Source of the DNA: Candidatus Saccharimonadota bacterium | Lineage (GTDB): Bacteria > Patescibacteriota > Saccharimonadia > Saccharimonadales > Saccharimonadaceae | Reading direction: 5' to 3' | Length of the DNA: 32,000 nucleotides | NCBI GenBank assembly: GCA_001897305.1 | Contig: MKSO01000001.1 | Location: 210,001 to 242,000 of the forward strand | Part shown: positions 9,775-25,823 of the stretch, piece after piece | Layout of the letters: each line of letters opens with the position of its first letter | Position numbering within the stretch: position 1 is the stretch's first letter | Notes under the pieces: generated by a model | Told to the model about the DNA's origin: nothing | Database searches by the model: none | What the model saw: the letters and a program-made list of their open reading frames with translations, nothing else | Translations under genes and position numbers: made by a program

Positions 9775-9793
9775 CAGAGGCAAACTGTTAAAG

Positions 9794-9822
9794 TTGAAGT
9801 CTGAACAAAAAAAGAGTATAGT
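9794..9822 (+). promoter_or_regulatory. Promoter of the T-box leader/cupin/ileS unit (TTGAAG-17-TATAGT)
   Basis: -35 at 9794-9799, 17-nt spacer, -10 at 9817-9822. Confidence 0.45.
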
Positions 9823-10094
9823 AAAAATAGAAGCGTTTGAGTGGTAATCAGCTACGAATACATTAAGTATACGTTTCGGGAAGAACGACTTTTGTATTCA
9901 AAAGGAAACCTACTAAAAAGTAGCATTTCCACCACCTGCGAGGATGCAAAACTCTACTAGACCCCGACGCGATCCCGGCGTAACAGTGGAATAATGAAGT
10001 GCTGAAGTTTAAACTTTCAGAAATCGGATGGTACCACCCGTTTTGCGGGTTCCGATGGATGAAGGTTTTTATTATTTTAAAAGGAAATCCATGT
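9823..10094 (+). promoter_or_regulatory. T-box-type riboswitch leader (probable tRNA-Ile sensing)
   Basis: AAATCGGATGGTACCACCCG (10021-10040) matches the T-box consensus AANNNGGGUGGNACCNCG. It folds as a canonical antiterminator: ATCGGA (10023-28)/TCCGAT (10051-56), 7-nt bulge TGGTACC, ACCCG/CGGGT, loop TTTTG. A stem-III-like hairpin precedes it at 10002-10020. Candidate Ile specifiers are ATC-A (9847-9850) and ATT-A (9862-9865). Located upstream of ileS. Confidence 0.65.
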
Positions 10095-10577
10095 ATGAGT
10101 GAGATACATACACTTAGAAACAGTGTAAGCCTTGGGGAAGGGGCTGAATTTCGTAATGGTGAAACATGCGAGGGGGTAGCGTATGCACTCCTGACCTCAG
10201 AGGGTGAAGTTGATCCTACTCGTGACTTTGCTCGTATTCAAGTAACCCGTCGGTATCCGCTGGATGGGTTGCTCTACGCGCAAAATAATGGTTCTCAGGA
10301 ACGAGTTGAAGTTACTAGTGGTGAAGGCTATTTGCTTCGAGCTAAAACTTCCGGATATATGAGTAGAATAGCGCTTCGGCCAGGTGTGGTAGTGACTATC
10401 GAGCCGGGAGAACTATTTGCTTGGTGGCAGACCGCCTGGGACGACACAAAAGAACCGCTTGGTTTTGATATGATTTGCACGCCGCCGTTTGACCCTGAGC
10501 AATATACATACATTAGCATTGATGAAGGTATTGCCGTTAACGATAATGAAAGGAAGTTGGATGAAGTTCAAAGCTAA
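10095..10577 (+). CDS. Cupin-like small beta-barrel protein (hypothetical)
   Basis: 160 aa starting at ATG 10095, with AAGGAAA 8 nt upstream. Beta-rich pattern VEVTSGEGYLL...LRPGVVVTIEPGELFAWW. Its 3' end overlaps the ileS start by 17 nt. Confidence 0.55.
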   Translation: MSEIHTLRNSVSLGEGAEFRNGETCEGVAYALLTSEGEVDPTRDFARIQVTRRYPLDGLLYAQNNGSQERVEVTSGEGYLLRAKTSGYMSRIALRPGVVVTIEPGELFAWWQTAWDDTKEPLGFDMICTPPFDPEQYTYISIDEGIAVNDNERKLDEVQS

Positions 10578-13500
10578 TAGTCGCCGCCGTGCCCTTGAAT
10601 ACGAAAAAGAGTGGGTTGCTCAGTGGAAGCAAGATAATACGTTCGAAAAGTCGGTCGAGAACCGTTCTAAAGACGACGCCTATGTGTTCTACGATGGCCC
10701 ACCGTTTATTACTGGTGTACCGCACCACGGAACACTCCTTAGCTCTATTGTGAAAGACGCCGTGCCGCGTTATTGGACTATGAAAGGCAAGCGTGTCGAA
10801 CGTGTATGGGGCTGGGACTGTCATGGCCTGCCAGCGGAAAACTTTGTTGAAAAACAATTAAATATCGTTGATCGCCGCCAAATCGTCGCCAACTCGAGCG
10901 ATGAAACACCGCTTGATAAAGACGGCCAGCCGCTACCAACTATTAGTCTTGAAACCTACATCACCAAAGCTCGTGAAAGCATGGTGGCCAACAGCGAAAG
11001 CTGGGAAGGGGTGATTGACCGTATTGGCCGTTGGGTTGACTTCAAGGGTGCCTATCGGACTATGGATAAAGACTTTATGGAGAGTGTGTGGTGGGCCTTT
11101 AAGCAGTTGTACGAAGCTGGCAAAATTTACGAAGGCAAGAAAGTGTTGATGTATGACATCAAATTTGCCACGCCTGTTTCTAAAGCCGAAGTAACAATGG
11201 ACAATGACGCCTACCAAACCGTCACCGACCCATCAGCATATGTAAAGTTTGTATTCGAGCACGACGAAGCGTTTACAAAAGTATTTGGTGACTATCCAAA
11301 AGATGTTGCGGCTCTAGGCTGGACGACAACTCCATGGACATTGCCAGGCAACACTGCCCTTGCAGTGAGCCCTACTATGACCTATTGCTTGGTCGAAGTG
11401 GGCAACGATAGTCTAGTTATTGCTAAAGATCGCCTAGAGGCAGTGTTGAAGGGTGATAAAAACGAGCCACTTGAATACCGCGTTATAAAAGAGATGAGCG
11501 GTACTGACCTTGACGGTCTCTCGTATAAACAATTATGGAATGCACCAGTGAAAGATATTGGCCCTCATGCCACTCTTGCTATCGGTTCATTCAACGATTC
11601 AAGCGCTGAAAATTTTGAGCCAGGTCAGCCATGGGCAAGCAGCTGGAAGGTATACGCTGCTGATTTCGTGAGTGCCGAAAGCGGTACGGGTATTGTCCAT
11701 ATAGCGCCAGCCTATGGTGAGGACGACTTTGAACTGGCGAAAGAAAAGCTTCTTCTTGTCGTGGACCCGATCGATGACAACGGCTATTACGCGCAGCCAC
11801 TGCGCGACTGGCTCTATAGCCTCATGCCATGGCGAGATGCGACGGCTCCTTTAGAATGTTTTGAAGCAAATAAAGATATCGCAAAGGGCCTCGAAAAGGC
11901 TGGTATCGTCTGGAAAATCGAATACATCCGCCACGAGTACCCATTCAACCCACGCTCCAAGCAGCGCATTATGTACCGCGCCATTCCATCATGGTTCTTT
12001 GACATTCAAAATTCAAAGCCATTGATGCTTGAGCAAAACGAACATATTAACTGGTTTCCGCCTCACCTCAAGCACGGCCGCTTCCAAAAAAATATCGAAC
12101 AAGCGCCCGACTGGAACCTTAGCCGTGACCGTTTCTGGGCAACGGCTATGCCGGTGTGGAAAGGTGATAACGGCAGTATAAAAGTTGTTGGAAGCTACGC
12201 CGAACTCAAAGAACTCAGTGGGGTGGAGCTCGACGATTACCACCGCCCTTGGGTTGATGACATCACCTTCGATATTGACGGTGAACACTTCACCCGTATC
12301 GATAAAGTGCTTGATGGCTGGTTCGAATCGGGCTCAATGCCATTTGCACAGCTGCACTATCCATTTGAAAACCAAGAAACCTTCGAGAAAAACTACCCAG
12401 CGGACTTTATCGTCGAATATATCGGGCAGGTGAGGGCGTGGTTTTACTACGTACATGCTGTAAATACCGCGCTGGCTGACATTGGTGCCTTTGGTGCTGA
12501 TAGCCAGAAGCCCGAAAAAGAGGCTTTCAAAAACGTTATCACCACTGGCGTGATTGCTGGTAATGACGGCCGCAAGATGAGCAAGAGCCTTGGTAACTTT
12601 ACCGACCCGAATGAGTTGATGGATAAGTTCAGCGCCGATAGTCTCCGCTTCTTACTCTTGGGTAGTCCATTACTTAGTGGTGAGGACTTTGCGCTTCAGG
12701 ATAAAGATGTTGGCGACGTTGCTCGTAAGCTGACTATGATTTGGAACATGTACGATTTCTTTACCATGTACGCCGAAGTCGACGGCTGGGAATTTAACGG
12801 CGATTTGAACGATCCATTGGAAAGTCTGACCAACCCGCTCGACATTTGGATCGTCTCGCGCTTGCACCAGTTAGTCGGCGAAGTCGAAAAACACATGGAC
12901 GGCTATAACATTCCTGATGCACTCAGCCCAGTGCTACCATTCCTCGACGATGCCAGTAACTGGTATGTGCGTCGCAGCCGCCGCCGTTTCTGGAAGAGTG
13001 AAGATGATGGTGATAAAAACGACGCCTATCGCACACTGCACTATGTACTGGTTCGCTTGGCTTATGTTTTGGCGCCGTTTACGCCGTTCTTGGCTGAGGA
13101 GCTATACCGCAAGTTAACTGGTGACGATGAATCAATTCATCTTAAAGACTGGCTTTCAGCCGGTGCCGTTAATGAGCAGGTAATGGGTGAGATGGAGACG
13201 GTACGCGAGTATGTCAACCAAGGCCTCAGCCTGCGGGCAAAGGCGGGTATAAAGGTTCGACAGCCACTGGCTAGTGTCACGGTCCCGGGTGGCGTCACCT
13301 CATTCGATCAAGCTTCTATTTTAGAAGACGAATTGAATGTGAAAGCCGTTATTGTTGCGACTGATACAGATGCTGAGATTGCTCTCGATACCACCATTAC
13401 TCCTGAACTTCATCGTGAAGGCCTCATGCGCGAAGTTATTCGCCATGTGCAAGCGGCGCGTAAGGATGCTGGGTTGAATATCGACGACAGGATCAGCCTA

Positions 13501-13668
13501 AGTCTAAATACTGAAAATGAGGAGCTTCGCAAAGCACTCGAAGAGTACAGCGCTACGATTATTGCGGAAACTCTTGCTCATGCGCTTGTTTCCGGCGAAG
13601 CATTTGCCTATACAACAACGGTACTCGTGGAAGGCGCCGAGCTTACGGTATCTTTGGAAAAGTCCTAG
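10561..13668 (+). CDS. ileS: Isoleucine--tRNA ligase, type 2 (eukaryote/actinobacterial-like)
   Basis: FYDGPPFITGVPHHGTLL (HIGH region, type-2 form), KMSKSLGN, CP1 editing domain, and no C-terminal Zn-finger domain. ATG 10561 has AGGAAG upstream, and the N-terminus (MKFKANSRRRALEYEKEW) is typical. Confidence 0.95.
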   Translation: MKFKANSRRRALEYEKEWVAQWKQDNTFEKSVENRSKDDAYVFYDGPPFITGVPHHGTLLSSIVKDAVPRYWTMKGKRVERVWGWDCHGLPAENFVEKQLNIVDRRQIVANSSDETPLDKDGQPLPTISLETYITKARESMVANSESWEGVIDRIGRWVDFKGAYRTMDKDFMESVWWAFKQLYEAGKIYEGKKVLMYDIKFATPVSKAEVTMDNDAYQTVTDPSAYVKFVFEHDEAFTKVFGDYPKDVAALGWTTTPWTLPGNTALAVSPTMTYCLVEVGNDSLVIAKDRLEAVLKGDKNEPLEYRVIKEMSGTDLDGLSYKQLWNAPVKDIGPHATLAIGSFNDSSAENFEPGQPWASSWKVYAADFVSAESGTGIVHIAPAYGEDDFELAKEKLLLVVDPIDDNGYYAQPLRDWLYSLMPWRDATAPLECFEANKDIAKGLEKAGIVWKIEYIRHEYPFNPRSKQRIMYRAIPSWFFDIQNSKPLMLEQNEHINWFPPHLKHGRFQKNIEQAPDWNLSRDRFWATAMPVWKGDNGSIKVVGSYAELKELSGVELDDYHRPWVDDITFDIDGEHFTRIDKVLDGWFESGSMPFAQLHYPFENQETFEKNYPADFIVEYIGQVRAWFYYVHAVNTALADIGAFGADSQKPEKEAFKNVITTGVIAGNDGRKMSKSLGNFTDPNELMDKFSADSLRFLLLGSPLLSGEDFALQDKDVGDVARKLTMIWNMYDFFTMYAEVDGWEFNGDLNDPLESLTNPLDIWIVSRLHQLVGEVEKHMDGYNIPDALSPVLPFLDDASNWYVRRSRRRFWKSEDDGDKNDAYRTLHYVLVRLAYVLAPFTPFLAEELYRKLTGDDESIHLKDWLSAGAVNEQVMGEMETVREYVNQGLSLRAKAGIKVRQPLASVTVPGGVTSFDQASILEDELNVKAVIVATDTDAEIALDTTITPELHREGLMREVIRHVQAARKDAGLNIDDRISLSLNTENEELRKALEEYSATIIAETLAHALVSGEAFAYTTTVLVEGAELTVSLEKS

Positions 13669-15166: not shown

Positions 15167-15228
15167 ATGTATATTTGCGAGTCAGTTTTGTACTGAACTA
15201 TGTATAAATTATTTATAGCATAAGCTTA

Positions 15229-15265
15229 AATAAAAGTCAATGTCGTTACGATATTGACTTTTATT
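15229..15265. other. Perfect 13-bp palindrome (terminator-shaped hairpin) in an AT-rich divergent intergenic region
   Basis: AATAAAAGTCAAT (15229-41), 11-nt loop, ATTGACTTTTATT (15253-65). Flanked by a second inverted pair AGCATAA (15217-23)/TTATGCT (15271-77). Confidence 0.5.
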
Positions 15266-15319
15266 ACCTTTTATGCTTAAATACTATCAATACCAATCAA
15301 AACAAAAAAGTATTTAAAA

Positions 15320-15520
15320 ATGTCATTACTTCAGTATCTACAACTTCAGCCAATCGACCCTCAAGACGATGGTACGGTGAGTGATCTTGATGATTTTCCT
15401 CAAGACGAGGTGATTGACCTTACCGAAGAGGATGACGGCGACACGTTAGCGCAGTCCTGGGAAGAGATCGACGAAACATTACACTCTATGAGCGTCACTG
15501 ACGACGATTCGACTTCGTAG
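15320..15520 (+). CDS. Hyper-acidic 66-aa protein (hypothetical)
   Basis: 15 Asp and 6 Glu, with no Lys or Arg. No obvious SD. Coding status rests on ORF length and on the jump in composition relative to the AT-rich upstream region. Confidence 0.45.
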   Translation: MSLLQYLQLQPIDPQDDGTVSDLDDFPQDEVIDLTEEDDGDTLAQSWEEIDETLHSMSVTDDDSTS

Positions 15521-15562
15521 TCCATTTTATACATAAGCGACTTACTGGTATACTTTGTAAAT

Positions 15563-19750: not shown

Positions 19751-20551
19751 ATGGCCACTGTTATCGCAGTGACAAACCAAAAAGGGGGAGTAGGCAAGAC
19801 AACTACCTCTATTAATGTGGCTTATTTTTTGGCAAAAGCTGGCCGAAAAACACTGTTAATTGACTTCGATCCTCAAGGGAATGCAACGAGCGGCCTTGGT
19901 GTTGATAAAACTAGCCTTACCGGTGATATGACTGACGTTATTAAGGGCCAGCAGCAGCTTGAGCAAATTATTGTCAAAACAGAGCATAAAAACCTGTGGC
20001 TAGCCCCAACTACCTCGGTGCTTGCCAATACCGAAGTCGAGATGGCTCAAGTGGACCGCCGTTTTTCGCGGCTTCGTATGGCGGTGGACGCAGTGCAACA
20101 GGCTTACGACTATATTATTATCGACAGCCCGCCAAGCCTCAGTTTGTTGACGGTTAATGGTTTGATCGCTGCGAAATATGTACTATTGCCGGTACAAGCT
20201 GAATTTTATGCCTTAGAGGGGTTGGGGCAGCTTCTTGAAACCATGAAGCTAGTTCGCAAGGGTATGAACCCGACACTCGAACTATTGGGTGTGTTGCCGA
20301 CCATGATGGATAGCCGAACAACTCTTAGTAACCAAGTGCACGCCGAGATTAAGCGGCACTTCCCGGGTAAGGTATTTGATGTAACGATCCCTCGTAATAT
20401 TCGTTTAGCCGAGGCGCCGAGCCACGGTATCCCTATTGGCGTGTACGACAAGTTTTCTAAGGGTTCACGTGCGTATAAAGCCCTTGCTAAAGAGGTGATT
20501 GATCGAGTTGAAGCGGCTCAGCCTGCTGCGGCTGGCGAGGGTACAGTATGA
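19751..20551 (+). CDS. parA: Chromosome partitioning ATPase ParA/Soj
   Basis: Deviant Walker A NQKGGVGKTTT, IIDSPPSL, and ATGA overlap with parB. Confidence 0.95.
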   Translation: MATVIAVTNQKGGVGKTTTSINVAYFLAKAGRKTLLIDFDPQGNATSGLGVDKTSLTGDMTDVIKGQQQLEQIIVKTEHKNLWLAPTTSVLANTEVEMAQVDRRFSRLRMAVDAVQQAYDYIIIDSPPSLSLLTVNGLIAAKYVLLPVQAEFYALEGLGQLLETMKLVRKGMNPTLELLGVLPTMMDSRTTLSNQVHAEIKRHFPGKVFDVTIPRNIRLAEAPSHGIPIGVYDKFSKGSRAYKALAKEVIDRVEAAQPAAAGEGTV

Positions 20552-21447
20552 GCGCGGCAAAAAAAGGGTTAGGGCGTGGCTTTGATTCGCTTATACCAAC
20601 GGATTTAATTGACGATAGCTTCGACCCTAATAATCTGTACGACCCAATAGCCGATGAAGACAAAAAGGTGAGCCACGAGCAAACCTTGCCACTTACAAAA
20701 ATAGTTGCCAATCCCGACCAACCTCGTCGCCAATTTGACCAAACTGCCATTGAAGAGTTGGCGGCCTCTATTAAAGAGCATGGCCTTATTCAACCTATCG
20801 TCGTTACTCCAAAAGGTGAGGCATACGAGATTGTTGCCGGCGAGCGCCGGTATCGGGCCTCCACGCTGGCTGGCCTTACGGAAGTACCTGTTATTATTCG
20901 AACGCTGTCCGCTCAAAACCAACTCGAGCTTTCATTGGTTGAGAATATTCAGCGCCGTGATTTGAATGCCATTGAAACGGCCATCGCATACGCCAAGCTA
21001 CGTGATCAGTTTAACCTTACAAACGAGCAAATCGCTGCTCGTGTTCACAAATCCAGTTCTTCAATTATTAATACGATGCGCCTATTAAAGCTTCCTAAAG
21101 AAGCCATTGCTTTAGTGGCTGAGGGGAAGCTTCGCGAGGGTCAAGTACGGCCACTTATCGGGCAAGACGATACGCTCATTCTTGAAATACTCCCTAAAAT
21201 TCTGGCTGAAGAGTGGAGTGCTCGTAAGGTTGAGCAGTACGTGGTTAATTTAAAGCGAGCCACAGAAGCGAACGAACCTAAAGAAACAGTTGATGTTGCT
21301 CCGGAAACCGTGGCCGCTATTGATGCGCTTTCGAACCGCTTTAATACCAAGGTTGCTATTCGCACCAATACAAAAGGTGCAGGTAAGATTGTTATCGATT
21401 TTAAAAATCAACAAGAATTTGAACGAATTAAAGACTTGCTTAGCTAA
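20548..21447 (+). CDS. parB: Chromosome partitioning protein ParB/Spo0J
   Basis: GLGRGFDSLIP, IQPIVV, AGERRYRA and ENIQRRDLN motifs. Confidence 0.95.
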   Translation: MSAAKKGLGRGFDSLIPTDLIDDSFDPNNLYDPIADEDKKVSHEQTLPLTKIVANPDQPRRQFDQTAIEELAASIKEHGLIQPIVVTPKGEAYEIVAGERRYRASTLAGLTEVPVIIRTLSAQNQLELSLVENIQRRDLNAIETAIAYAKLRDQFNLTNEQIAARVHKSSSSIINTMRLLKLPKEAIALVAEGKLREGQVRPLIGQDDTLILEILPKILAEEWSARKVEQYVVNLKRATEANEPKETVDVAPETVAAIDALSNRFNTKVAIRTNTKGAGKIVIDFKNQQEFERIKDLLS

Positions 21448-21590
21448 GGGCAGTGGCCTGCGGCCCTACCTTTCCAAAGGACACTTTCGCGTAACCAAAA
21501 ACCTCTAAGGCGTAGAGACCCTTAGAGGTTATTGCGTGAAGCAAGTTCCGTGGAAACGGTAGGGCCGCAGGCCACTGCCCTTAGCTAAGC
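21438..21590. repeat. Long rod-like hairpin element, copy 1 (candidate structured RNA or palindromic element)
   Basis: Perfect 33-bp outer stem (21438-70/21558-90) plus 6 more bp (21471-76/21551-56). The core shares blocks of 16, 19 and 14 nt with copy 2. Inner stem AACCTCTAAGG/CCTTAGAGGTT with 9-nt loop CGTAGAGAC. Confidence 0.7.
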
Positions 21591-21594
21591 TACC

Positions 21595-22194
21595 TTAGAA
21601 CGTTCGAATCTTATTGAATGGGAAAATCCGCATAGCAACCGGCCCGACGATATCGTATTGTGGAATCGTCCCTAAGCCATTACGAGAGTCGTACGAATAA
21701 TTGCCCTGTCGGTGGTCGCCAGATACGAAAATTTCACCTTCAGGTACGACTTCGTCTACTTCGCCGCTGGTTGGACTGCCAGGCTCGCCGTGGTTGTAAT
21801 CATCCGGGTTAAACCCTTCAGGATGAGCGTCGTTATAAACGGTGTATGTACCGTTTTTCAGTACGACGCGCTCGCCAGGGTAGGCGATGACCCGTTTTAC
21901 GATATATTCATCCTCGATGCCTAAAGTATAATGCGGGTTACGAAAAACGATAACCTGACCACGAGTAGGCATGTATTTTTTGCCTTGGATATTTGCCCAT
22001 GTTACGGGTAGGCGGTTCACGATAAGGCGGTCACCGGTATAAAGGGTTGTTTCCATACTGGGCCCAACAACATTGTAGCTACGAAACACAAAAGTATTAA
22101 TAAGAACCGTACCAATAATGACACAGACAACAAAAATAACCAGGCTAAGCAGGTCCTTGAGAAACGGATGACGGGTAAAATACGAGGCTTCCAT
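21595..22194 (-). CDS. lepB: Signal peptidase I
   Basis: GPSMETTL (catalytic Ser), YIVKRVIAYPGERV (catalytic Lys), GDHRQGNYSYDSR, and an N-terminal TM anchor. Confidence 0.9.
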   Translation of the reverse strand: MEASYFTRHPFLKDLLSLVIFVVCVIIGTVLINTFVFRSYNVVGPSMETTLYTGDRLIVNRLPVTWANIQGKKYMPTRGQVIVFRNPHYTLGIEDEYIVKRVIAYPGERVVLKNGTYTVYNDAHPEGFNPDDYNHGEPGSPTSGEVDEVVPEGEIFVSGDHRQGNYSYDSRNGLGTIPQYDIVGPVAMRIFPFNKIRTF

Positions 22195-22253
22195 GAACTT
22201 CCACTATTATACGCGAGTCATGTCATAAACACCACGTATGTTGGGCCTGAATG

Positions 22254-22282
22254 TTGGATATTACCGCACGGTCGCGTATAAT
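22254..22282 (+). promoter_or_regulatory. Promoter of the LCP gene (TTGGAT-17-TATAAT)
   Basis: -10 TATAAT at 22277-82. It lies inside the 5' extension of the ORF-track call, which supports ATG 22296. Confidence 0.45.
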
Positions 22283-22295
22283 AAGTACAAGTTTT

Positions 22296-23999
22296 ATGAA
22301 TAATAAAAAGTCAACAGTTGACGGGTTTATACCCCGTAGGCCTGGTAGCCAAATTGGCGATCGTCACTCGACGACTCCTAAACAGGCCCAATCGACACCA
22401 CGCCGAAAAGAGCTCGTTACTGAGGACGATCTTCAAAAAAATAGTATTGGCGCGGCGCGTCCGGGTCGTGCTATCGGACGCTCTGATATTGACGCGTCAC
22501 TTCGACAATTAGACGATCCGCTAGAGCAGCAACGGAGTGGACGTAAATTATCACGACGCGAGCGCCGTCGTATAAAAAAAGAGGCTCGTACTCGTGGCCA
22601 GCGTATTCGACGCCGTATTATTTGGGCTCTTGTCATCCTATTGATTGCGGCGTTACTAGCAGCTGGTGCCTTCATGGTATTTAAGGCCCTCCGTGCGACA
22701 AATAATGTCCTTCAGGGGAGCGTTGCAGACTTAATACAGCACGAACCCCTTAAAAAGGATGCTAATGGACGCAGTAACTTCTTAATTTTGGGTACTGCAG
22801 AAGATGACCCGGGTCATGATGCTGGCTGGCTGACTGACTCAATCATGATTTTGAGTATCGACCAAGACAAAAAGAACGCCTACACCTTTAGCATTCCTCG
22901 TGACCTCTATGTAAACTATGGCATGGCTTGCGATGCTGGCTACAGAGGAAAGATTAACGCTTACTTTAACTGTGTTAACCAAGGTACCGATGACGCCGCC
23001 GAACAGGAACGCCTAACGCAAACACAAGCATTTATCGGTTCTATAACTGGCCTTGATCTTCAGTATGGGGTTCACGTTAATTACACAGTTATGCGCGACA
23101 TTGTGAATGCTATTGGTGGCAGTATTACGGTGAAGATTGAGGGCAATGACGGCAGCGGGCCATCTGACAAGCTTGGCATTATGGACAGTAACTTTGACTG
23201 GAAGTGTGGGGCTACTCGGGCTCAAAAGATTGCAAATTGTCCACCAAACGGCCACTTTATCGAATACGAACCGGGCCTTCAGGTGCTCGACGCCGAACAT
23301 GCGCTTTACTTAGCCCAGGCCCGTGGTGATATATCGCCTACATATGGTTTGGCACAGTCGAACTTCGACCGCGAACGCAACCAACAGAAGATTCTAGTCG
23401 CTATTAAAGATAAGGCTCTGAGTACCGGTACACTAACTAACTTAGGGGCAATTAGCGGGTTAATTGATGCGCTAGGCAATAACTTGCGTACCAATATTCA
23501 AACCAAAGAAGTTCGTACCCTAATGGACCTTGCTAAGGACATTCCTAATGACAAGATTACATCTATCGATTTCTACAGCCCAGATAATAAGATCTTCACG
23601 ACAGGGCCTATTGACGGAGCGAGCTCAGTGTATCCAGCCGCTGGCCTCTACAATTACACCGCATTGCAAGCCTTTATCCTTAAAGAGCTTACCTCCGAAC
23701 CATATATGAAAGAGAACGCGAGCATTACCGTGTTTAATGGCACCCAAGTTGCTGGCGTAGGCCAAACACTCTCCAACGCTCTTACCGAGAAAGGCTTTAC
23801 GGTTGATACCGTCGATAATGCGCCAGAAGGCAAGTATAGTCCAATTGAAATTTACCAACTTAATACAACCAAGCCGGCAACTACTGCGAAGCTACAAGAG
23901 TTGTACAACGTAAAAGTGAAGACGACCAAGCCACCAGTTAGTGTCACGGGCGAGACCGATTTCGTCATTATCATTGGCGACGCCAGCGTGGTACAATAA
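22296..23999 (+). CDS. LytR-CpsA-Psr (LCP) family cell-envelope phosphotransferase with a basic cytoplasmic tail and LytR_C-like C-terminus
   Basis: NFLILGTAEDD...LTDSIMILSID, SIPRDLYV, an Arg-rich N-terminal region, and one TM helix (IIWALVILLIAALLAAGAFMVF). Confidence 0.9.
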   Translation: MNNKKSTVDGFIPRRPGSQIGDRHSTTPKQAQSTPRRKELVTEDDLQKNSIGAARPGRAIGRSDIDASLRQLDDPLEQQRSGRKLSRRERRRIKKEARTRGQRIRRRIIWALVILLIAALLAAGAFMVFKALRATNNVLQGSVADLIQHEPLKKDANGRSNFLILGTAEDDPGHDAGWLTDSIMILSIDQDKKNAYTFSIPRDLYVNYGMACDAGYRGKINAYFNCVNQGTDDAAEQERLTQTQAFIGSITGLDLQYGVHVNYTVMRDIVNAIGGSITVKIEGNDGSGPSDKLGIMDSNFDWKCGATRAQKIANCPPNGHFIEYEPGLQVLDAEHALYLAQARGDISPTYGLAQSNFDRERNQQKILVAIKDKALSTGTLTNLGAISGLIDALGNNLRTNIQTKEVRTLMDLAKDIPNDKITSIDFYSPDNKIFTTGPIDGASSVYPAAGLYNYTALQAFILKELTSEPYMKENASITVFNGTQVAGVGQTLSNALTEKGFTVDTVDNAPEGKYSPIEIYQLNTTKPATTAKLQELYNVKVKTTKPPVSVTGETDFVIIIGDASVVQ

Positions 24000-24007
24000 A
24001 TACGCGT

Positions 24008-24808
24008 ATGGAGTTTCTCAAATTTGTTCGTAAGAAGTCATTTCTCAGCGAACTCATCTATACAATTTTGAACATCGCCTTGGCAGTGGGTCTTCTTCTG
24101 ATTGTCCGTTATACCGAGGCGGTGTGGTTTGCTATTTTGTTAGTTTTGCTGAGTAAATGGCGTATTTTTGCGGTTCGACCGCGTTACTGGTGGGCAAACT
24201 TACGTTCAAATGTCGTCGACATTATTGTGAGTGTGAGTGTTGTGTTCCACATGTACACGATAAACGCCGCTTTAATAGCTGACAGCACCAAGTTGCTGCT
24301 CTTGATAGTCATGACGCTGCTTTATATCGGTTGGCTGCTCTATATAAAACCGCGCTCTAAGCGTTCGTATATGGCACTACAAGCTGGGATTGCTATCTTC
24401 TTGGGTGTATCAGCGCTGTTTACTATTTCGTTTAACTGGCCAGTTTCTATTGTGGTAGTGGGCGCGTGGCTCATTGGATATTCGGCGACACGGCATATTT
24501 TGGGTTCTTATGATGATGAAACCCACGGTTTATTACTGGGCTTAGTATGGGGTTTGGTCGTGGCCGAGATTACTTGGGTGGCCTACCACTGGGCAATTGC
24601 GTACCCGTTGCCAATTGTAAATACTCTCATGATTCCACAAGCCTCCATTACTGTGACTCTGGTAAGCTTCTTGGCGTACAAATGTTACGACTCGTTCTAT
24701 CACCATGCTAAAATTCGTACCAACGATATATTATTACCGCTGTTGTTTACGGTAAGTATTATGATTGTACTCGTCTTAGTGTTCAACCGAGTTGGCACCG
24801 CTATTTAA
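24008..24808 (+). CDS. Hypothetical polytopic membrane protein
   Basis: About 7-8 hydrophobic helices. Extended -10 TGgTACAAT (23989-97) lies inside the LCP 3' end, 10 nt before the ATG. Confidence 0.7.
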   Translation: MEFLKFVRKKSFLSELIYTILNIALAVGLLLIVRYTEAVWFAILLVLLSKWRIFAVRPRYWWANLRSNVVDIIVSVSVVFHMYTINAALIADSTKLLLLIVMTLLYIGWLLYIKPRSKRSYMALQAGIAIFLGVSALFTISFNWPVSIVVVGAWLIGYSATRHILGSYDDETHGLLLGLVWGLVVAEITWVAYHWAIAYPLPIVNTLMIPQASITVTLVSFLAYKCYDSFYHHAKIRTNDILLPLLFTVSIMIVLVLVFNRVGTAI

Positions 24809-24812
24809 AGCG

Positions 24813-24947
24813 GTAACCAAAGAAACTCCTCGCAGTATATTCAAAGAACACTTTCGCGTAACCCCTAAAAATAAGGCGTAGAGACCCTTATTTTTAGAGG
24901 CGTGAAGCAAGTTTCGTGAATATACTGCGAGGAGTTTCTTTGGTTAC
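24813..24947. repeat. Long rod-like hairpin element, copy 2
   Basis: Perfect 30-bp outer stem (24813-42/24918-47). Same three conserved blocks as copy 1 (24848-63, 24872-90, 24900-13), in the same order and on the same strand. Inner stem CCCCTAAAAATAAGG/CCTTATTTTTAGAGG with the same loop. Confidence 0.7.
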
Positions 24948-24956
24948 TTCAAATAA

Positions 24957-25823
24957 CTAGGCCAACTTGTCAAACAATAAGCCGTAGCCGTCATTTTTTA
25001 CCAAAACAAGGCCGTACTTTGTTGCTTCTTTTATAATTGCTGGATGCTGTTCGGGGTCGGCTTCAAGGATGAGTTTGCCGCCATACGCTAATTTTTCTTT
25101 GCTTTGAATAAGGAGCTCAAATATAAGAGATAGGCCATTATTGGTAGCGAAAAGAGCTTCGGCGGGTTCGTGGTTTGTTTCGGGTGAACGCTCCCATTCG
25201 GGGTTAACGTAGGGCAGGTTAGCGATAATAACGTCAGCTATAAAGGGGTAGCTGGTAAGTAAGTCGCTTTGGAGGGTGTTTACTTCGGCGTTGAGCGTAG
25301 CTGCATTGTCTTGGGCTACGGTAAGGGCGTGACGACTTATATCAAGCAAGGTGACGTCGAGTTCGGGGTGTTCAAGCTTAGCCGTAATACCAAGTATGCC
25401 GCTGCCCGTACCGACATCGACTACTTTTAGTGCTTCGGGTAAAAGGCTGTGATTGCGAGGGAGAGCCTCATTAAGCAGTGCTATTAAGCTTTCGGATTCG
25501 GGACGAGGAATAAGCGTCGCGGTGGTGACTTTAAACATTCGCCCGTAAAATTCCTTATGGCCAATAATGTAAGCCACTGGTACGCGGTCAAGGCGAAGGT
25601 CAAGTCGGGCATTGGCAATTTCGCGGTGCCGTTCGCTTAGCGTTTCATCACCATGACCATGCAGCCAGGTGCGAGGCTTGCGGAGAGTGTGGGCAAGTAA
25701 TAACTCGGCATCAAGGCGAGCACTGGGGATGTCGGCAAAGACAAGTTGACGGGTTGCTTCGGCGAGCCAGTCGGCAATGGTGAACGTATTAGCTGGCGTT
25801 TTGGGCGGCAAGTTCGCGTTCAT
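24957..25823 (-). CDS. prmC: Release-factor glutamine N5-methyltransferase PrmC/HemK
   Basis: SAM motif [11 protein letters not shown] and substrate motif NLPY (a variant of NPPY). Overlaps and follows prfA. Confidence 0.9.

Follow-up and report, generated by a model that had tools for sequence, protein, structure and literature searches.

Several described families of hairpin-forming DNA come close to the element reported here. attC sites resemble it in that stems of free sequence keep a conserved structure with extrahelical bases, are recognised as a folded strand and lie at gene 3' ends; the base of their hairpin carries R''/R' and L''/L' boxes, and they form cassette arrays and adjoin intI. 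Correia elements are further defined by 26-bp terminal inverted repeats that are conserved, by a TA duplication and by an IHF site. REP/REPIN sequences with their RAYT enzymes offer another parallel, being gene-end hairpins with long vertical persistence and proposed roles as 3' stabilisers or terminators, whose folded single strand is recognised by an HUH enzyme. ERIC sequences, imperfect palindromes of about 127 bp in transcribed intergenic regions, can face either way, vary in presence among orthologous sites and are conserved in sequence across species. SPRITE repeats and other bidirectional terminators are likewise gene-end hairpin repeats, with A-rich and U-rich tracts beside the stem, and the RNase III stems flanking rRNA, like pri-miRNA-like hairpins, place an arbitrary duplex around a conserved RNA, an analogy of mechanism only. 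Correia/NEMIS repeats of Neisseria share with our element the intergenic hairpin, the insertion polymorphism and, in Correia, duplexes cut by RNase III (PMC10969869). Transcribed Correia and ERIC hairpins are cleaved by RNase III and RNase E, the RNase III cuts in Correia transcripts concern duplexes of the 20-40 bp length class, and ERIC hairpin RNAs affect mRNA stability (PMC10969869).

The present element occurs twice in the 32-kb stretch of Saccharibacteria DNA that was analysed as a whole (32,000 nt, hereafter the window). An earlier note, made from the sequence alone, had described copy 2 (24813-24947) as an inverted repeat around three blocks identical to those of copy 1. The copy exists as described, and the three blocks match exactly between the copies, with + strand and order unchanged. 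The features of the two junctions are the following.

20548-21447, + strand: parB (Pfam ParB_N, HTH_ParB, ParB_C), upstream of copy 1.
21438-21590, + strand: copy 1, entire, with arms 21438-21470 and 21558-21590 and core 21475-21552.
21481-96 and 24848-63, + strand: block ACACTTTCGCGTAACC, exact in both copies.
21506-24 and 24872-90, + strand: block TAAGGCGTAGAGACCCTTA, exact in both copies.
21535-47 and 24901-13, + strand: block CGTGAAGCAAGTT, exact in both copies.
21595-22194, - strand: lepB (signal peptidase I; Pfam Peptidase_S26), convergent with parB.
24008-24808, + strand: upstream ORF (membrane protein), 266 aa, no Pfam match, syntenically conserved; its stop lies 4 nt 5' of copy 2.
24813-24843, + strand: copy 2, 5' outer arm GTAACCAAAGAAACTCCTCGCAGTATATTCA, a perfect 31-nt inverted repeat with 24917-24947, paired in the fold.
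24844-24863, + strand: copy 2, 5' core half, columns 17-36, AA-GA-AC-ACUU-UC-GC-GUAAC-C, invariant or nearly so in 21 copies.
24864-24876, + strand: copy 2, variable inner stem, 5' strand CCTAAAAATAAGG, columns 37-50, the final 5 nt (UAAGG) conserved.
24877-24885, + strand: copy 2, conserved apical module CGUAGAGAC, with a C bulge, G-C and U-A pairs and an AGAG loop.
24886-24899, + strand: copy 2, inner stem, 3' strand CCTTATTTTTAGAG, complement of 24864-24876.
24900-24916, + strand: copy 2, 3' core half, columns 74-90, G-C-GU-GAA-GC-AAGU-U-UC-G, its GAA opposing the GUA of the 5' half.
24917-24947, + strand: copy 2, 3' outer arm, inverted repeat with 24813-24843.
24957-25823, - strand: prmC (Pfam PrmC_N, MTS), convergent; its stop lies 9 nt past the 3' arm of copy 2.

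The outer stem of copy 2, given earlier as a perfect 30-bp duplex, is indeed perfect and measures 31 bp, and its arms have no sequence relationship to those of copy 1 (21438-21481 with 21547-21590; 44 nt, 91% complementary), as had been claimed. The inner stems of the two copies also differ, yet each is self-complementary. Each copy takes up the whole interval between two convergent stop codons (parB 21447 to lepB 21595; membrane-protein ORF 24808 to prmC 24957), another point on which the earlier reading was accurate; the stop-to-stop distance occupied by the element is 147-148 nt at both junctions, and the palindrome of copy 1 extends into the final codons and stop of parB (GCTTAGCTAAG). The predicted folding energies are -99.6 kcal/mol for copy 1 (z = -14.1) and -80.4 kcal/mol for the + strand of copy 2 (z = -15.2), neither value being equalled by any of 200 shuffles.

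Pattern scans, a covariance model and synteny look-ups together yielded 21 distinct copies, 135-150 bases long, from at least 12 Saccharibacteria populations. More specifically, an exact scan with all three blocks over one genome per species (185,579 genomes) returned 4 matches, all in Saccharibacteria (TM7) assemblies or in a mis-binned contig of one, and a two-block scan of metagenomes returned 10 further matches. A covariance model, R1, was then built from 14 copies and run on syntenic loci fetched through ParB homologues. The 7 copies found without an exact pattern (L013b, L022, L025, L035, L036 and two in L038) score 88-108 bits against R1, and copy 1 scores 113.9 bits. A segment scoring 21.6 bits (L012:13913-14014) may be a decayed relative and was left out of the member count. 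The exact-pattern scan recovered 1-2 copies in each of 3 reference genomes, and the window holds 2 copies in 32 kb; these counts are lower bounds, as the scan overlooked known copies, including those of the window organism. From this single scan we estimate a copy number of roughly one to a few per genome of about 1 Mb. The element is a low-copy family confined to one clade of Saccharibacteria.

Comparison of the full window with Rfam 15 at gathering thresholds gave no match, and relaxing the threshold to E up to 10 over 21400-25000 gave chance matches only (mir-308 on the arm duplex, sR44, ARRPOF); the mir-308 and mir-2816 matches were rejected as chance similarity to the arm duplex. A tRNA/tmRNA scan was negative. 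Three patterns run against viral contigs, and BLAST of the core against phage genomes and plasmids, returned no copy, so that there is no sign of a phage or plasmid source. Judged by eye against their defining sequences, or against the expectation of a single copy, kink-turns, attC boxes, parS, hammerhead, hairpin and twister cores, SRP RNA and 6S RNA were all set aside. Our literature search found no description of this element or of a comparable Saccharibacteria element.

Sequence conservation is concentrated in the centre. The core (about 56 nt) has a mean identity of 95% across copies, a figure inflated by the fact that 14 of the 21 copies were ascertained by exact core patterns; in the three pattern-independent copies entering the identity comparison, the core is 87-96% identical to other parB-site copies. 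Between genomes whose core columns are about 95% identical, the last 240 nt of the adjoining parB are 64-71% identical, and the outer-arm columns fall to 38% with pairing retained. The expectation that bulges and loops would be invariant and the termini without common sequence, the reverse of a classical MITE, is borne out by these values (core 95%, arms 38%). Allowing for ascertainment, the core is under strong purifying selection and the stems are constrained by pairing alone.

Pairing was assessed on the 21-copy alignment, in which 96.2% of cells are paired, against 82.3% after shuffling and at most 51% with slid partners. Compensatory double changes affect 18 of 33 pairs and 99 cells, where shuffles give 28, and the observed covariation score was reached by none of 500 shuffles. 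These compensatory changes support a common fold, as is generally asked of a structured non-coding RNA. The one compensatory candidate singled out in the earlier note (21480/21548 in copy 1, 24847/24914 in copy 2; column pair 20-88) is G-C in 12 copies and A-U in the other 9, with zero exceptions. Pair 26-83 is seen as U-A, A-U and G-C, pair 25-84 as U-A and C-G, and pair 29-82 is G-C but A-U in two lineages (L022, L036). Overall, covariation supports pairs 19-89, 20-88, 23-86 to 26-83, 29-82 and 30-81 of the core, and compensatory changes in the inner stem occur at column pairs 37-73, 40-70, 42-68, 44-66 and 45-65. The inference first drawn from two copies, that conserved unpaired bases and covarying helices reflect selection on a single-strand fold, is upheld on 21. 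A small ORF or type I toxin was rejected because the variable segments change compensatorily and not at synonymous positions.

The core register backed by covariation differs from the minimum-energy fold. The latter (19-22/85-88, 25-31/75-81; UUUCGCG with CGUGAAG, including two G.U pairs) has zero compensatory change and 5 broken cells, and was replaced by the supported register, which forms a near-continuous Watson-Crick core helix interrupted by the fixed bulges AA, AC, UC, C and U. In this register GUA (columns 31-33) stands opposite GAA (78-80), an arrangement that may resemble the AGUA/GAA module of loop E/sarcin-ricin (bulged-G) motifs, the A before the G being C here. Past the variable inner stem (9-15 bp), the core is closed by a conserved cap, GG-C-GU-AGAG-AC-CC, in which 18 copies have U-A at pair 53-58, 2 have C-G and 1 has U.G, and variants of the AGAG loop are limited to UGAG or AGAA. 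The outer duplex measures 20-40 bp. A conserved, asymmetrically bulged centre with free stems is the mark of a folded single strand that is read by a specific partner.

Mismatches and position both bear on the strand and the molecule under selection. Read on the core-sense strand, mismatches within the near-perfect arms are predominantly G.U: those of L001 and L025 counted by eye are 4 G.U each and no A.C. The excess is more modest in automatic counts, of which one extending into the flanks gave 38 G.U against 20 A.C (p = 0.025). A strict stop rule gave 10 against 3 (p = 0.09) and minimum-energy folds 40 against 25 (p = 0.08); the former was judged too strict and the latter too inclusive, and neither was taken as the main result. 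In 16 of 17 copies, the sense strand gives a better fold than its antisense counterpart. Such strand bias in mismatches and folding is not expected of a double-stranded or cruciform site and therefore argues for selection on a single-strand fold. The core pairs of the supported register are all Watson-Crick, so the core alone cannot separate RNA from single-stranded DNA. Position adds further information: most copies begin 0-30 nt from an upstream stop codon, and 7 of the 8 copies at tandem junctions are sense to the upstream gene. Convergent junctions hold both orientations (5 versus 3 lineages at parB-lepB, 1 versus 2 at membrane-prmC). Two copies depart from this arrangement, L001 being antisense to both flanking tandem genes (the helicase gene and the next gene) and L014 sitting between divergent promoters; expression of either would need read-through or divergent transcription, and no sense promoter was recognisable for them. 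The orientation pattern nonetheless suggests a need for transcription, and given the gene-end position, the orientation pattern and the GUA/GAA-type internal module, we lean towards RNA as the selected molecule.

The palindrome also has a history of its own at the DNA level. Comparison of orthologous junctions, proposed earlier as a check for insertion polymorphism, revealed such polymorphism, with three lineages in which both parB-lepB and membrane-prmC are empty. The parB-lepB junction is empty in L015-L021, and membrane-prmC is empty there and at other loci, with gene order unchanged. Empty junctions contain no hairpin, their stop codons being either overlapping or separated by 11-37 nt, and the covariance model found no match in 125 kb from empty-site lineages. 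The earlier note had asked whether the outer stem pre-exists as a plain terminator; since empty sites have overlapping or abutting stops and no hairpin, this origin is rejected. Filled and empty sites are interleaved on the ParB tree at 84-87% ParB identity (L018 empty, L013 filled in + orientation, L025 filled in -), and both orientations are found at three different junctions.

The arms differ even between close relatives. In L022, whose ParB is 90% identical to that of the window, the window inner stem is kept and symmetric indels distinguish the arms: TGCGGCCC with its complement occurs in the two window arms and in neither arm of L022, which has an additional distal CCGAGCC/GGCTCGG. L023 and L024 (ParB identity 97%) have yet another 5' arm, the one arm visible there, since the contigs stop 19 nt into it. 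Several short-read contigs terminate within the palindrome. The far arm of L025 is an inverted copy of the final ~17 nt of parB, stop codon included, and at the junctions of the helicase gene and of greA a degenerate version of the gene's final codons, inverted, lies within the downstream flank and tracks lineage-specific synonymous differences. Distal-flank scores average 8.8 at filled sites, against 5.6 for non-cognate pairs and 5.6 for empty junctions. The idea that the arms are duplicated flanking sequence thus stands for their outermost parts only (L025, L001, helicase, greA); simple flank duplication is ruled out for the bulk of the arms, which is not flank-derived.

The centre, in turn, is shared between sites. 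The same cassettes of inner stem plus cap recur at different junctions in different genomes: AAAAACCTCTAAGG is common to window copy 1 (w1), L022 and both L038 copies, and A(A/T)TAAAAATAAGG to window copy 2 (w2), L013a, L003, L036 and L035. L002 and L003, which belong to one genome, share an arm, and GGCTAG in L003 corresponds to the final parB codon and stop of L002. Symmetric indels, inverted flank copies and cassette sharing show a DNA-level process in which one arm serves as template for the other, the centre is exchanged between copies and the entire palindrome is deleted or inverted. These dynamics probably contribute to the perfection of the arms.

With a probability of roughly 45%, we propose that the element is a structured RNA module transcribed by read-through, whose duplex serves as a 3' barrier or RNase III-type site and whose core is bound by a lineage-specific factor. 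Transcription running out of the neighbouring gene would yield an RNA of the strand shown, which would fold as a long irregular rod consisting of the outer duplex, the core helix and the inner stem with its cap. Pairing would be the sole requirement on the outer duplex (20-40 bp), and a long, near-perfect duplex of this kind may form a barrier at the 3' end and also be cut by RNase III or a similar double-strand RNase, which would free the module from the mRNA. A conserved protein or complex particular to this lineage would bind the invariant core. Separately, the DNA behaves as a self-perfecting palindrome: its arms change by symmetric indels and copy flanks outward in inverted form, its central cassette is exchanged between sites, and it is present in either orientation or, in related lineages, missing from the junction. 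A point against the proposal is that the arms could owe their perfection to templated correction of DNA rather than to selection on RNA.

A bolder version, in which ultra-small bacteria would possess a novel type of genetic unit, holds that a conserved RNA cassette, the subunit of a lineage-specific RNP not described so far, rides without promoter or terminator in a self-templating palindrome and hops or flips among sockets at a few gene ends. We regard it as speculative and rather unlikely, its DNA-level variant included. If true, the palindrome would supply the processing duplex and the cassette could be expressed from any transcript; if the DNA variant were true, a mobile element would be recognised through its centre alone, with arms re-synthesised from the flanks at each event.

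The main rival to the RNA module is a mobile element acting as single-stranded DNA. It would be non-autonomous, with its bulged core read in the folded strand by an HUH/Y1 enzyme (IS200/IS605, RAYT) or an attC-type integrase whose gene lies at another place in the genome, and which would move or copy the central cassette while the arms are rebuilt by fold-back synthesis. Much of the DNA-level record suits it: the interleaving of filled and empty alleles on the ParB tree (L018, L013, L025), the two orientations at three junctions, the cassettes common to different sites in different genomes, the parB end of L002 carried by L003 within one genome, the symmetric indels and inverted copies of coding flanks, which demand templating at the DNA level, and the purely Watson-Crick core pairs. 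Against this, the apparent copy number is very low, and insertion points are common to lineages at about 70% ParB identity, which suits long residence and not active spread. By eye we found no conserved termini, flanking tetranucleotide or consistent direct target duplication, and the clear repeats are inverted (L025); copy 1 is flanked on both sides by CTTAGCTAAG, itself a palindromic 10-mer. Neither the annotated window ORFs nor the genes called in the fetched loci include a transposase or recombinase, viral contigs, phages and plasmids hold no copy, and mobility alone does not explain an intact core in old resident copies. We consider a single-stranded DNA element possible but improbable.

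A plain bidirectional terminator or 3' stabiliser, acting with no trans partner and kept uniform in its core by gene conversion, so that any long hairpin could serve, is a doubtful alternative. It would account for the gene-end location, often between convergent genes, and for the A-rich 5' and U-rich 3' tracts that flank the inner stem in the style of bidirectional terminators; there is evidence of cassette exchange between copies, and a comparable action is proposed for SPRITE and other hairpin repeats (PMC10969869). Gene conversion, however, acts within genomes, and core identity of about 95% is seen across genomes in which the neighbouring genes share 64-71%. In the window genome, the presumed terminator just 3' of the sub-threshold T-box match upstream of ileS has a long free U-tract (GGUUUUUAUUAUUUU), and the element has none outside its paired region: its U-rich 3' strand pairs with the A-rich 5' strand, unlike an intrinsic terminator, and a consensus scan called no canonical terminator at the window copies. 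Related genomes have no hairpin at these junctions, and termination needs neither fixed bulges nor a fixed cap.

Independent sRNA genes, each with its own promoter and acting in trans by base pairing through conserved single-stranded nucleotides, are very unlikely. A low-copy family with a conserved core does recall multi-copy sRNA families, and L001 and L014 lie outside any 3' UTR; still, the arms begin at or inside the upstream stop codon and leave no room for a promoter, no sigma-70-like promoter was found upstream in the sense orientation, and the few unpaired nucleotides include no conserved long single-stranded seed. Least credible of all is a double-stranded DNA site, a cruciform or bipartite operator serving, for example, chromosome organisation near parB: the architecture is palindromic, copy 1 adjoins parB, the two window copies lie at most 3.4 kb apart, and GTTTCGTGAA in some copies resembles a parS half-site pair, but this parS-like sequence, part of which falls in the variable arm, is missing the central 2 bp, further copies sit at greA, helicase and other junctions, freely covarying stems leave no readable sequence outside the core, and cruciform transitions would give G.T and A.C equally, without the strand bias that is seen.

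Saccharibacteria and other candidate-phyla-radiation genomes are tiny and dense, trimming intergenic DNA until stop codons overlap. That an element of about 140 nt is kept in such genomes with near-tRNA conservation of its core argues for a real function and probably for a protein partner that has gone unrecognised. An invariant centre with sequence-free arms reverses the usual rule for bacterial hairpin repeats. Beyond the RNA module itself, the family provides a natural series for following long palindromes as they become perfect, grow outward, flip or are lost, spanning sites that are empty or filled in either orientation, arms with symmetric indels and arms copied from coding DNA. The window organism is present at 100% identity on contigs of 0.9-1.3 Mb in several samples, and with its host on such large contigs, transcript tests on existing data look feasible.

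Set against the described families, the element misses the tested defining features of ERIC, Correia, REP/REPIN, SPRITE and attC. ERIC copies resemble one another from end to end, termini included, with 30 to 700 of them per genome; in our element the centre alone is conserved, the arms are unrelated, copies apparently number ~1-5, and there is no sequence similarity to ERIC. The 26-bp termini and IHF site of Correia are absent, and no TA duplication was evident by eye. REP/REPIN sequences show the opposite arrangement, with a conserved hairpin arm, a free spacer and hundreds of copies per genome, whereas the arms of our element are not conserved, and no RAYT gene was found among the annotated window ORFs or the genes called in the fetched loci. 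With respect to attC, the element differs in its long invariant core blocks, its housekeeping neighbours and its lack of arrays; copies are single, no integrase gene was found in the loci examined, and the core GCGTAAC, compared with the R'' box (RYYYAAC), is not paired with any R' sequence (GTTRRRY). SPRITE repeats and terminators are distinguished by the free U-tract that the element lacks, and its invariant bulged core and cap are foreign to them. As for MITEs, the insertion polymorphism is shared (both junctions are empty or filled according to lineage), the inverted termini of each copy have no sequence in common with those of other copies, and in place of many copies with an autonomous IS there are 1-2 exact matches per genome, a lower bound. 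The element belongs, broadly, with the structured intergenic hairpin repeats, among which its conservation pattern is inverted and the dynamics of its palindrome are unusual.

The window organism recurs in several ENA and JGI samples, where contigs of 0.9-1.3 Mb (L030-L034), near-complete single contigs, match it at 100% nucleotide identity across 6.6-6.9 kb and carry both window copies of the element without change. In short-read (Logan) assemblies, contig ends fall within the palindrome (L023:6896-6914, L024:4027-4045, L026:10814-10880 and L029:2237-2303). The element breaks assemblies, and in fragmented metagenome bins it will be under-counted. The helicase gene end and the element on the 5.3 kb contig DATMTU010000133.1 (L001) are shared with two Saccharibacteria contigs, L006 and L012, and the label Dongiaceae that this contig bears probably reflects mis-binning.

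An extended -10 promoter directly adjoins the element in both copies located outside a 3' UTR, one on L001 (2980-3035; TGTATAAT) and one on L014 (4766-4794; TGCTACAAT). Both promoters face away from the element, which lies behind them, and we speculate that divergent transcription from them could supply a sense transcript of these copies.

Two copies of the element were found 3.4 kb apart in one genome:

L038:10906-11012, minus strand, element copy
L038:14358-14465, minus strand, element copy

They have in common the inner stem, the rare variants A26/U83 at a covarying pair of core columns, and a UGAG cap (the apical module closing the inner stem), and differ in their arms. This pair is consistent with within-genome duplication or gene conversion.

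A weak match to R1, the covariance model of the element, adjoins a SAM-I riboswitch match on its far side, the riboswitch match itself being followed downstream by a metK-like ORF:

L012:13731-13847, minus strand, SAM-I riboswitch, 42.6 bits (slightly below the gathering score of 44.4)
L012:13913-14014, plus strand, weak R1 match, 21.6 bits

In the R1 match the cap GGCGUGGAGACC is kept and the core is degenerate; the sequence may represent a relative of the element that has decayed or diverged.

Two further features were recorded in the window:

15217-15277, near-palindrome of 61 nt, its 30-nt arms 80% complementary and separated by 1 nt
9898-10057, plus strand, T-box leader match (RF00230), 41.1 bits, E = 1.5e-07, below the gathering score of 93 bits

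The near-palindrome lies in the divergent intergenic region 15167-15562 and shows no resemblance to the core element. A gap of 714 nt (9775-10488) precedes ileS (10489-13668) and contains the T-box match, with a hairpin and long U-tract 3' of the match at about 10030-10085; this leader probably represents a divergent T-box riboswitch of the Ile type.
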